63,875 nt of DNA, filler included, from Reclinomonas americana ATCC 50394 (GCA_048213135.1; 20 parts of 20 records of this genome joined end to end with filler, not necessarily neighbours in it), one strand, 5' to 3'. Positions 966-62,225 are shown, numbered from the whole stretch's first letter. Numbers and translations: made by a program. Notes: generated from the sequence alone by a model not told the origin.

Positions 966-3610
966 ATGCGATTAAATGCGCGACTGCCACTCATTCTCGC
1001 GCTGCATTGCTTTGCCCTCGTGTGCATCCTGCCCGTTCTCATCACACATGCAAAAGTGCAAGGTGCGACGACTGTTTCTCGCCAATGTGCGCGCATATTG
1101 TTTTTTGACTCACACTCTTCTTCTTCTCTCGCTCGCTCGCTCTTGTGCACAGGCGATGTTACATGGTTTCCTGGAACGTTGCGCACATCTCACCCTTACT
1201 GTGTGTGTTTCGCCCACGCGCTCACTTCTCGCGTTTTTTTGTGTTTTGTAAGTGAGGGTGTGAAAGAGTATGCGCATGAGCTGGCCTACTCGGGCTCTCT
1301 GGTGGTTCTCGGCAACTCGGCGGGCGGCTTTGCCTCGATGAATCCCGACGACTTTTCGCTGGGAAAACTCGGCCCCTTTGTCGTCGATCATCAAATTCGT
1401 GAGTCCGTTCGCGCGGAGACAAGGAGAGACGCAGTGTTGCTCACCTCCATTGTGAGCAGCTGGGACGTATTCTAGAGTGTCGGCCTTCAATCAGACGGCG
1501 GCCTTTGCGTACAACAACACAGTGTGGACGATGGATGCGATGAATGGCGAGTGGAACACGCGATCGTCGGTGGTGCAGACCGATTGGATTAGTTGCGCTT
1601 CTCTCTCTCTCTGTTGTTGCATATCGCAGCGTGGATGCTGATGTGTACCCGGGGAACAGTTGATCGCGTGTTCATCTTCCGCGCGGTCGACGATCCACCA
1701 CTGGCCATGAACATGTTTATCGCCGGCGTGCAGCAGAGTACGGTGATGGTATACACGTCGATGAGTCCGCAGTCGCCGTGGGTCCTCAATCAGACGCTGA
1801 CGGTGCCCGATGCCGGTGCGCTGCTCTCTCTCTCTCTCGTTGTTGATGATGATGAGTTCTCCTTGTGCGCAAGCTAACGGTGTCACCGCAGGACCATCGT
1901 TTGGCACGGCCATGGCCGGCTATCACTCGTATGTGGCGATCTCGGAGCCGTCGAACGGAGCCGGCCTGGTGCACATGTTCAACCAGCAGCCAGGCAAGTA
2001 CGCTGCTCTGGGTGCGCAGACTGTTGGCCCTGCTCACCGCTCTCCACGCGTGCAGGTACACGCGTATGGACGTACTTTTCCACGATTGATGGGTTGGAGG
2101 ATGTGCGTGCCGGCAGCCAGTTTGGCTCGTCGCTTTCGTGGAACAAGTGGTTCTTTATTGTGGGCTCGCGGTATGCGGGTACCCTGCGGCAAGGTGCCGC
2201 TGTGCTGTATCTACCCACGCAACCAGTTTCCCTGGTTTGTGTTTGCGTGCGGCTTCTCAACATCTGCCACGCGTACCTCACACGCTCTCTGTGCCCACCG
2301 ACAGGGTCTCAATCTCACTCGCGGATGGGTCTTTGATGGCGAACCGAGTTCTGGATTCGGTGCCTCGCTCGGCATGGTGCGCGAGTCAAGCTCGGGCGAT
2401 TCACACGCGCACACACTGACACTTGATTTTCTTCTTCTTCTTCTTCTGCGCAGGATGCGAATGACAACTCTGACGGCACGGCCGACATTAACGTCGTGGT
2501 CGGTGCACCAGCCATCGGTCAGGCGTTCTTGTACAAGTGCATCACCACACAATATGTGAATGCTACGGTTGCGTAAACAGTTCCTCTCTCCTTTCCTCGA
2601 GCTGTACAATTGTCCTTACCGTGCCTTGGCGCGCAGTGCGAGCGCGCTGACGTGCTGATTGGTCGATACACGAGTGACGGCGTTGGTCTCAGTGTGGCAT
2701 TTCCACCGCAGCGCATCCTCCTTGGTGCTCCATGTTACGTTTTTTCATTCTCATTTCTTTGCACGAGCTCCTTGTACGATTGCTGAAACGGGACACTTTT
2801 GTGCAGTTGGCCCGAATCGCACCAAGGACTCGCAGGGATTGCTGTACTCGTTTGGCTACTGCTACGATCGGTACGCACGAGTCAAGCAATCCGAGATTCT
2901 GGTGTGCCGCCGCTGCCAGCCCGACTGTGGAGAGACTGGTGGATTCGCCGAGGGCTGCTGCGGCAGCTTTTTCACATACCGCATCACCTACTTCTTGTTC
3001 TTGGTGTCGCTGGTCGGCTTGTGCATGCTCACGTGCTGCTGCAAGACTCTTCCGCGAGCGGTTTTCGAGGGCTGCCTACGCGGCTGTGCCTATTTGTTGT
3101 GTCGGTGCGTGTACATCTCATGCGGCGCACGTGCATGGCATGTCACGCGCTCACTCTCTTCTCCAACACGCGAGCAGACGCGCAGTTGTACAGTACCGAA
3201 ACACGGGTGAGCTACCGGCCGGACCGTGGCGTCGTCTCCAAATGTTCCTGCTCGGCCGACGGGATCCACCCATTTTCCTCGACGACTCGTTTGCGCTGGC
3301 CCCTGTACGCCGCCAGGTTGAAGTGATGGACTCGCAAGTCCAAAGTTCAACTCACCTGGTTGACGTGGACAAGGCCGACCGAGCCTACCTCATGTGCCGC
3401 CAGTGCCACCAACGCGAGATCAACGTGTTGCTCGTCCCCTGTGGTCACGAGGTCCAGTCCGTGTGATTGTTGTTTTTCTGTTCGCCGTGCGGTGATGCTG
3501 ACTCTATACTCTTGGCGCAGGCGTACTGTCTCGAGTGTGCCGAGGACTTCTTGAGGTGCCCACTGTGCCAGCAGCCTGTCGAAAGATGGGTTCGTATCTA
3601 TCCCATCTAA
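966..3610 (+). CDS. Type I membrane protein: signal peptide, FG-GAP-like repeats, Cys-rich juxtamembrane segment, TM helix and C-terminal C3HC4 RING finger
   Basis: About 13 exons. N-terminus is hydrophobic (MRLNARLPLILALHCFALVCILPVLITHA). Repeats: SFGTAMA..VAISEP, QFGSSLS..FIVGSR, GFGASLG..VVVGAP, VGLSVA..ILLGAP. TM: ITYFLFLVSLVGLCMLTCCC. RING: CRQCHQREINVLLVPCGHE|AYCLECAEDFLRCPLCQQPVERWVRIYPI, stop TAA 3608-3610. Confidence 0.75.
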
Positions 3611-3729
3611 GTGTACAAAATGTCGTTGCCTTGCGTGTACTTGGGAAGATTGTTTGCTTTTTTCGTTTCATTTGACTGCGAGGGCTTTGTTTGCACACAC
3701 GCACGTGCACACGCACATATGCAGACACA

Positions 3730-61429: not shown

Positions 61430-61471
<42 letters not shown>

Positions 61472-62225
61472 NNNNNNNNNNNNNNNNNNNNNNNNNNNNN
61501 NNNNNNNNNNNNNNNTTAATTAATTAANNNNNNNNNNNNNNNNNNNNNNNNNNNNNNNNNNNNNNNNNNNNGAGAGAGAGAGAGAAGAGAGAGAGAAGAG
61601 AGAGACAACAGAGAGAGCGCAGTGAGACAAGAGACAAGGAGAACCACATCGAGAGAAGGAAGAGTGGCACAGATAAGCGTGAGACAACACAGATGAGAGC
61701 GCACGTTGACAAGAGAGAAGAACAAGCAAGCACGACAGAAGAGAGCATATAGTGCATTCCCCTCTCTCTCTCTCTCTCTTGCCGGCCCTGCGCACGCAAC
61801 ACTTTTGCACAGTCACCACCTAAATAAAGACCACAAGGTGTCAGAGGCATGCATGCACACACACACACACACACAGAGTGAAATTACACGAAACCTCATA
61901 GCCTGCACGCTCCGCCTGTCGCGCAAACTGCTCAGGGTTCGACGCATTCTTCTTCACGGGCGCCTGTGTGTGAGAGAGAGAGCGACATGTCACGCACTTT
62001 TATCTCGCACTTTCGTGTGTGAGTGTGTAAGAGTGTGAGACAGCACGCAACCTTCTTGCGCAGCACAACGGGCTTCCTGTGTGTGAGTGAGAGAGTGAGA
62101 GAGAGAGCGCATGATGATGATGCGCATACAAGATTCCGCACCAGTCTGTGCATGCAATACAGAGCGCACGAGTGAGCATCACACACACGCACAAAGACAG
62201 GCACACTCGCCGCACCCTGATCCAT
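59475..62225 (-). CDS. MBF1: Multiprotein-bridging factor 1 (MBF1/EDF1), 10 exons; not visible in the ORF track
   Basis: MDQD|WCGIL|KPVVLRKK|APVKKNASNPEQFARQAERAGYE|VVTVQKF|TTGNKHAPSANARKLE..LQQARQAKGW|TQKELATAINEKPQTV|SEYESGRA|IPNNGLIAKMERALGVSLRGGKKGGK|KAPR, stop TAA. HTH motif intact. Confidence 0.95.
60560..61745. repeat. Degenerate GA-rich repeat (GAGAGCAATGCAC.., CAGTGAGAACCACATCG, GCGCA..GTGACAAGAGAC) in the long MBF1 intron
   Basis: Several shuffled copies of three sub-motifs on both sides of the gap. Confidence 0.75.

Follow-up and report, generated by a model that had tools for sequence, protein, structure and literature searches.

In a 63,875-nucleotide (nt) stretch of DNA from Reclinomonas americana ATCC 50394 (GCA_048213135.1), which consists of 20 parts of 20 records joined with filler and is called the window throughout, GTTGCG(T) does serve, as judged from the spliced alignment of homologous proteins, as a 5' splice site, and a frequent one. 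The introns that it opens are short GT-AG introns of the ordinary kind and make up roughly one in five. Donors of this kind mostly lack the G that stands as the last exon base (position -1) at nearly all other donors of the same genes, and from their first G onwards they repeat the ordinary consensus, G|GTGCGT (the bar marks the cut), displaced by one base into the intron. On balance, and with some reserve, we favour the view that the recogniser of G|GTGCGT also reads GTTGCG donors, one base out of register. The window has a G+C content of about 55%, is dense in introns and includes 19 pairs of masked N runs.

Junctions placed by protein homology

Junctions were placed with a protein-to-genome spliced aligner, written for the analysis, that scored all GT donors equally, penalised GC donors and required AG acceptors. 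Four genes, recognised by their Pfam domains and by spliced alignments, served as homology anchors: coatomer alpha (COPA; 3745..8060, minus strand; COPI_C and COPA/B domains), an aldehyde dehydrogenase with at least 22 introns (ALDH; 54100..58800, minus strand; Aldedh), a RalGAP/Rap-GAP gene (14700..20220, minus strand; Rap_GAP and RALGAPB_N) and a histone deacetylase (HDAC; 39600..41400, plus strand; Hist_deacetyl, aligned with 12 homologs). A junction was kept if it was chosen identically with several homologs, the threshold being at least 3 of 6 for COPA, 5 of 8 for ALDH, 3 of 5 for RalGAP and 5 of 12 for HDAC; junctions under these thresholds were left out, and the verified set comprises 49 junctions (15, 22, 6 and 6 respectively). 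Three further calls were set aside. At COPA 7423 (C|GTGCGC) 3 of 4 homologs gave this donor, but the intron includes masked N and its acceptors are inconsistent; COPA 4707 (G|GTGCGC) had inconsistent acceptors as well; and the third was a GC donor call at 54145, made with 5 of 8 homologs at the extreme end of the protein. In the spliced alignments, which used 5 to 12 homologs per gene, removal of the introns restored both the reading frame and continuity with the homologs.

The commonest donor hexamer among the 49 junctions is GTGCGT (11), followed by GTTGCG (10, or 20%), and there is one GTTGCA and one GTTTCG. We refer to the 12 donors that begin GTTGC or GTTTC as the shifted-type class and to the remaining 37 as ordinary donors. 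All 12 shifted-type introns start with GT and end with AG, as U2-type introns do; the donor motif of U12-type introns is [AG]TATCCTT, and a U12-type assignment was rejected because a donor of this type is found in none of the 12. Protein homology therefore supports the proposal of the initial annotation that introns beginning with GTTGCG are real, and at 10 to 12 of 49 verified introns the class is as mainstream as had been claimed. Two of the relatives that had been named alongside it were recovered, GTTTCG (at 6846) and GTCACG (at 6335), while a third, GTTACG, has no verified case.

Five shifted-type donors lie in ALDH, on the minus strand, and each was chosen with 8 of 8 homologs. The introns concerned are 58553..58688 (136 nt, donor A|GTTGCGTG), for which a fallback donor 6 nt upstream costs 3-9 units of alignment score; 58447..58528 (82 nt, donor T|GTTGCGTC); 58003..58099 (97 nt, donor A|GTTGCGCC), where forbidding the donor costs 25-34 units; 56791..56854 (64 nt, donor G|GTTGCGTA), the sole verified case with G at -1; and 56079..56139 (61 nt, donor A|GTTGCGTC). 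In local alignments the junctions at 58528, 58099, 56854 and 56139 fall inside gapless, conserved protein blocks, respectively EGDAAD|VDKAV, FRYY|AGWA (aligned with YRYYAGWA), VDK|VTFTGS (aligned with VDKVAFTGS) and ETD|QGPQV.

COPA, also on the minus strand, contributes 6938..7011 (74 nt, donor T|GTTGCGTC; 5 of 6 homologs, with a cost of 5-6 units when the donor is forbidden), 5361..5419 (59 nt, donor C|GTTGCGTT; 5 of 6 homologs, in the block WPFLN|ITK aligned with WPLLTVSK) and 5155..5227 (73 nt, donor T|GTTGCGTC; 4 of 6 homologs), the last of which has poorly conserved flanks and is the weakest of the three, together with a relative of the class at 6785..6846 (62 nt, donor A|GTTTCGTG; 5 of 6 homologs). 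The RalGAP-like gene adds, on the same strand, 18607..18673 (67 nt, donor A|GTTGCGTG; 3 of 5 homologs), 14962..15025 (64 nt, donor C|GTTGCGCA; 5 of 5) and another class relative, 16939..17006 (68 nt, donor T|GTTGCAGG; 3 of 5). Ordinary donors are exemplified by the COPA intron 5972..6040 on the minus strand (donor G|GTGCGTTT; 6 of 6 homologs) and the HDAC intron 40118..40181 on the plus strand (donor G|GTGCGTCG; 12 of 12); HDAC has no GTTGCG donor, and G stands at -1 of all six of its verified donors. When each of the ten GTTGCG donors was forbidden in turn, every one of the 20 runs ended with a lower alignment score, the loss being 3 to 34 units. Outside the set of 49, an ab initio call places a probable 72-nt COPA intron at 7513..7584 (minus strand, donor G|GTTGCGTC), which is in frame without a stop; read through, it would be a Cys-rich insert of 24 residues. 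Its acceptor is only putative, and BLASTP homology to P0003 ends exactly at VWDIGG, at the position of the donor.

The hexamer is also abundant in the window as a whole and tied to 3' splice signals. It occurs 85 times on the two strands together, against 44.06 ± 5.98 in 100 dinucleotide-preserving shuffles, none of which reaches 85, an excess of about 41 copies; the initial annotation had put the class at about 30-35 of about 150-160 introns. A branch-point-plus-acceptor score, trained on 14 homology-defined COPA introns, was asked for 55-80 nt downstream of every GT in the window, and in this comparison, which needs no gene model, no other GT-hexamer was tied as closely as GTTGCG to strong 3' signals (22 of 84 copies against a base rate of 10%, p = 2e-5). 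Cross-validated scores overlap the background, so that single sites are not classifiable by their 3' signal alone. The introns themselves are mostly clustered at 57-84 nt, with a branch-point motif CTNAY (CTCAC and CTGAC being commonest, with CTAAT also found) 8-45 nt upstream of the acceptor, which a position-weight matrix found in 28 of 28 training introns.

All 16 coordinates that the initial annotation had listed as GTTGCG intron starts carry the hexamer on the claimed strand. Five of them are the ALDH donors described above. The sites 1178, 1592, 9029 and 9163 are donors in an ab initio run of a generalised hidden Markov model that was blind to donor sequence, and downstream of 2568, 9835 and 11260, at a distance of 66-69 nt, there is a strong 3' splice signal; at 43839, 59092 and 62051 that signal is moderate only, and at 61800 a masked N stands in the way of judgement. 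With flat donors the model found 5 of the 14 COPA introns that were trusted, and with seeded donors 18 of 28. This poor return reflects exons that may measure no more than 7 nt, on which coding statistics fail, and the model was used only as a noisy, exon-blind replicate and never for counts.

The exon-final G and the donor consensus

The initial annotation had held that G at -1 distinguishes GTGCG from GTTGCG donors, and the contrast in the verified set is a sharp one: G is present at 1 of 12 shifted-type donors and at 34 of 37 others (Fisher p = 1.4e-7). Adding two doubtful rule-breakers, 7584 with G at -1 and 7423 with C, leaves p at 1.8e-6, and in the ab initio run, where the model was blind to exon bases, the corresponding figures were 2 of 16 GTTGCG and 12 of 16 GTGCG donors (p = 0.001). 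Across the window, G precedes 11 of the 85 copies of GTTGCG (13%), against 15% before any GTT; G at -1 is thus unselected before GTTGCG and not avoided. Of the three ordinary donors that break the rule, two are themselves doubtful, namely 5640 (GTATCA, in a variable linker) and 57877. The latter belongs to a 144-nt ALDH intron in the interval 57734-57879 on the minus strand, which one of the eight homologs makes into two introns around an 8-nt exon, one of 68 nt starting G|GTGTGT and one of 70 nt starting C|GTTTCG; if this split were right, there would be one fewer exception to the rule and one more shifted-type donor.

GTGCG donors have G at -1 in 13 of 13 cases, even though their intron part is already strong, which argues that a G in this slot is needed for its own sake, and that at GTTGCG donors the +1 G supplies it. 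Under a slide of one base, position -1 of the shifted class should further have a composition like that of position -2 in ordinary donors, and the two are indeed similar (A5 T4 C2 G1 and A13 T12 G8 C4 respectively), as is expected of shifted-register sites.

The remaining columns tell the same story. From -1 through +1 to +6, ordinary donors carry G34, G37, T37, G26, C19, G26 and T25 of 37, while the shifted class from +1 to +7 carries G12, T12, T12, G11, C12, G11 and T9 of 12. After the slide the columns left free agree, with G at +6 in 11 of 12 and T at +7 in 9 of 12 shifted-type donors, against G at +5 in 26 of 37 and T at +6 in 25 of 37 ordinary ones. The consensus of shifted-register sites, in which the usual motif reappears one base further on and the +1 G occupies the slot of the -1 G, is therefore what is found. 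Ordinary donors are individually degenerate from +3 to +6 (for example GTATTT, GTACCC, GTCTCT and GTACAC), and at +4 C is their commonest base (19 of 37) and G occurs in none. The earlier suggestion that the classes share a single word, G[G/T]TGCG, with a different cutting position in each, fits these data, in that the cut always falls before the first GT; shifted pairing to an ordinary U1 is by itself insufficient, as the energies given below indicate.

How the two donor classes may be read

We propose that a heptamer, G-[G/T]-T-G-C-G-T, would be bound by one recogniser at both classes of donor, with its first G nearly obligatory. This recogniser would most likely be the 5' arm of U1 small nuclear RNA (snRNA) together with its proteins. 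Later catalytic steps would then cut before the first GT of the heptamer, the choice of cleavage site being separate from the reading by U1. Within GGTGCGT the first G would stay behind as the last base of the exon; within GTTGCGT it would become the +1 base of the intron, leaving the last base of the exon free. Since the consensus matches after a slide and the -1 rule behaves as it does, the data argue for a one-base shift of register and not for a bulge.

How U1 might pair with these sites was explored with a nearest-neighbour model of duplex energy, which takes no account of pseudouridine or proteins, using 250 GT sites from the same genes as decoys. The standard U1 5' arm was taken to be AUACUUACCUG, as printed in PMC4856993, and may not be the arm of this organism. 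Here, and elsewhere in the data, several points weigh against a shared recogniser one base out of register. In the best duplex of any register the standard arm binds shifted-type donors with a mean of -1.6 kcal/mol, compared with -2.4 for decoys and -6.0 for the other donors, and when registers are forced on the shifted-type donors the shift comes to +1.9 and the bulge to +2.7 kcal/mol. The stable shifted duplex that would mark these donors as shifted-register sites did not appear, a result that applies to the standard arm only and would not decide membership, since the organism's own U1 arm may differ. GTTAAG and GTTGAG, both of which the standard arm would favour as shifted sites, show no enrichment, the window having 5 and 27 copies respectively. 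Within the four genes, GTTGCG occurs 17 times in sense and 7 times in antisense (p = 0.06), a weaker contrast than that seen window-wide. The sample is one of 49 junctions in four genes of one window, whose positions rest on protein homology and sequence signals; three of the shifted-type sites (58688, 7011 and 5227) are less firmly placed, their fallback GT donors costing just 3-9 units; and because the class is defined by its first five letters, only columns -1, +6 and +7 are free to bear on the slide.

The standard-arm energies mean that shifted pairing to an ordinary U1 does not by itself explain a nearly fixed TGCG. The recogniser would then have to be a changed one, or recognition would have to lie with proteins, and a standard U1 arm working through base pairing alone is probably not what reads the motif. 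When arms were varied at positions 3-6 (256 in all), the 49 verified donors were best separated from the 250 decoys by an arm whose positions 5 and 6 are G and C. This arm is predicted to hold 8 of the 12 shifted-type donors in the shifted register, the forced shift giving -6.0 and the forced bulge -5.2 kcal/mol. It may be, although we think it unlikely, that the U1 5' arm of this organism has changed in just this way, the pseudouridines at positions 5 and 6 having become G and C (...ACGCACC...) and the register having been uncoupled from the cut. Were that so, G|GUGCGU would be its perfect complement, the UGCGU core would hold U1 one base out at GUUGCGU, and the cut would be made afterwards at the first GU. 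Such an arm is a prediction of the modelling, and one with which the predominance of C and the lack of G at +4 of ordinary donors would agree. An Rfam scan of the window at gathering thresholds returned no snRNA (0 matches), and relaxing the limit to E values up to 1 gave 50 weak matches with no snRNA among them, mostly microRNA-like and lying in a hairpin-rich interval.

Two other readings accept the donors as real and differ over what reads them. In a bulged register, the +1 G and +2 U would be paired with U1 in the normal way, one surplus U (that at +3, or else that at +2) would be bulged out, and GCGT would pair as +3 to +6 normally do. A bulge at +2/+3 is proven for some human sites, with 68 predicted in the accessible text of PMC4856993; under the hypothetical GC-containing arm the forced bulge (-5.2 kcal/mol) is nearly equal to the forced shift (-6.0 kcal/mol); and the relative GTCACG at 6335, which has G at -1, suits a bulged C better than a shift. 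Such a bulge, however, leaves C9 of U1 available to the -1 G and weakens the helix, so that the preference for G at -1 should be at least as strong as the 34 of 37 of ordinary donors, and it is instead 1 of 12, which is background. The extra base is T in 12 of 12 members of the class, no GTAGCG, GTCGCG or GTGGCG donor is found among the verified junctions, and none of the 12 copies of GTAGCG has a strong 3' partner. We consider a bulge decidedly unlikely. Alternatively, GUUGCG(U) could have a reader of its own, be it another snRNA of the U1 kind or a protein that recognises the sequence, independent of the reader of G|GUGCGU. This would suit a standard arm that fails to tell GTTGCG sites from decoys, it is compatible with a free -1 base, and of the 256 arms, those that complement GUUGCG in full (AUCGCAACCUG, mean -8.4) do best when the shifted class is taken by itself. 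Yet it leaves as coincidence both the match to the main consensus after the slide, including the free +6 G and +7 T, and the replacement of a required -1 G by the +1 G; the Rfam scan found no second U1-like RNA in the window, although one window cannot exclude its presence elsewhere in the genome. A separate reader is in our judgement improbable, though not negligible, and a shared recogniser standing one base out of register accounts for both of these matches.

The junctions might also have been misplaced, the true cut lying elsewhere, for instance at a GC donor (GTT|GCG) or at an ordinary GT close by; or the hexamer might merely reflect base composition. The commonest fallback when GTTGCG was forbidden was indeed GTT|GCG, at a cost of 9-17 units of which 8 are the penalty on GC donors, and fallback GT donors come within 3-9 units at 58688, 7011 and 5227. 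But GTT|GCG adds a residue inside the gapless blocks at 58528, 58099, 56854 and 56139, and it needs an invariant exonic GTT in three codon phases (the ALDH phases being 0, 0, 2, 1 and 2); a GC-AG reading, which always scores worse than the GT donor and inserts that residue at four ALDH sites, was rejected. Composition, for its part, sits poorly with a hexamer that is twice as frequent as its shuffled expectation and tied to 3' signals at intron distance, and we regard misplacement or composition as very improbable. That related introns carrying their own GTTGCG end have spread recently, in the manner of introner-like elements, with the -1 base set by the sites of insertion, would explain both the arbitrary -1 base and the uniform donor. 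The interiors of the introns do not bear this out: mean local alignment scores are 7.8 within the class, 8.0 among other introns and 8.0 between the two, and in the absence of any additional interior similarity the 12 introns are not a repeat family. Their lengths and branch sites are also the same as those of other introns, and such a spread is scarcely credible.

Neighbouring features, known systems and significance

Several features of the window lie outside the verified junctions. The ALDH gene contains micro-exons of 7 nt (57117-57123), 15 nt (57989-58002) and 25 nt (58529-58552), and to our knowledge its intron density is far above that of animal ALDH2 genes. Four homology-defined 'introns' are unusually long, at 342-763 nt compared with 57-144 nt for the rest: 57252-57593, 55126-55888 and 54351-54767 on the minus strand, and 40349-40921 on the plus strand. 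They may conceal micro-exons passed over by the aligner, or they may be genuinely long; the second of them contains masked N. Two tandem protein kinase genes, each with partial Pfam kinase matches, lie at 41435-44153 on the minus strand. They hold ten sense-strand copies of GTTGCG, including 43839, all of them candidate donors; blastn and tblastx detected no similarity between the two spans, and the single-exon Pfam matches are too short to fix junctions. Pfam matches and open frames place an SLC35F-type transporter together with the histone deacetylase in the interval 37-41.4 kb (plus strand), and partial Pfam matches indicate an RmlD/epimerase-type reductase of at least two exons (12445-13034, plus strand) and a calcineurin-like phosphoesterase at the left edge (86-472, minus strand). 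The interval 52790-53085 is hairpin-rich, and many unrelated microRNA precursor models match it on both strands at far below their gathering scores (46 against 76 bits at best); this is most probably a repeat, either inverted or simple. Of two metagenome scans for related DNA, one was empty and the other gave a single distant COPA fragment (48% over 33 residues), which was not used.

A literature search, whose coverage excluded subscription journals, found no description of a GTTGCG/GUUGCG donor class. Shifted or bulged reading has been proven at a small number of human sites, each taken singly, with suppressor U1s. Shifted-register 5' splice sites in human were reportedly described by Roca and Krainer in 2009. 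The accessible text of PMC4856993 presents a shifted U1 register, with cleavage fixed later, as established at rare human sites, and it puts the human non-canonical registers that were validated together at 1.5% of 201,541 sites. These shifted sites resemble ours in that the +1 G fills the slot of the -1 G, the consensus lies one base deeper in the intron and the cut is made at GU, but the frequencies differ, at 1.5% for all human non-canonical registers and about 20% of verified introns here. The motifs differ too: as given in that text, the human shifted motif follows the standard arm (a model oligonucleotide, ACA|GUCAAGUAUA, is predicted at -6.5 kcal/mol; PMC4856993), whereas GUUGCGU, the motif here, does not bind the standard arm in the model (+1.9). 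The human bulge +2/+3 sites set out there are alike in their GUU start and in a consensus displaced by one base, but they keep the pairing of the -1 G, which here is at background (PMC4856993).

Closer in sequence is Ostreococcus lucimarinus, in which, outside chromosome 2, donors have the atypical consensus GTGCGTG, and the authors raised the question of snRNA changes that might complement it (Irimia and Roy 2008, PMC2483917). The core GTGCGT, with C at +4, is shared with R. americana. The accessible text of PMC2483917 describes that genome as intron-poor and its signals as uniform, and does not mention an offset class; the window, by contrast, has extreme intron density, its ordinary donors are degenerate from +3 to +6, and alongside them stands a separate class with an offset. 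The best protein matches do not point to Ostreococcus; those that bear a name come from assorted protists and animals.

The donors of the window also divide into those with G at -1 and a weak intron part and those that lack this G and have a near-fixed TGCGT. The 'left-handed' and 'right-handed' donors of a study of LUC7 are both said to lie in the ordinary register, unlike the intron-leaning class here, which is displaced by one base. In the part of that study that is accessible, the two kinds are comparable to ours in relying on the exon side and the intron side respectively (10.1101/2022.12.07.519539). For a tandem donor of STAT3, the accessible text of PMC11162779 similarly proposes that the registers of U1 and U6 differ from that of cleavage; this is a single human exon, whereas here it would be a genome-wide class.

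For practical annotation, gene finders that use a single position-weight matrix and expect G at +5 would mis-call about one fifth of the donors in this organism. A near-fixed TGCG that mismatches the standard U1 arm reopens the question raised for Ostreococcus, of whether the arm or its proteins co-evolve with the donor (PMC2483917, as far as its accessible text goes). If the changed arm were true, R. americana would show, in nature, a U1 arm and a donor consensus that had evolved together, and its genome would be one in which the register of U1 and the site of cleavage were routinely uncoupled. A genome with about one fifth of its introns on donors offset by one base would in any event be a natural large sample for studying how the cut is chosen independently of U1 binding, and it would open the related question of how U6 and the catalytic core handle an extra base between GU and the paired G.

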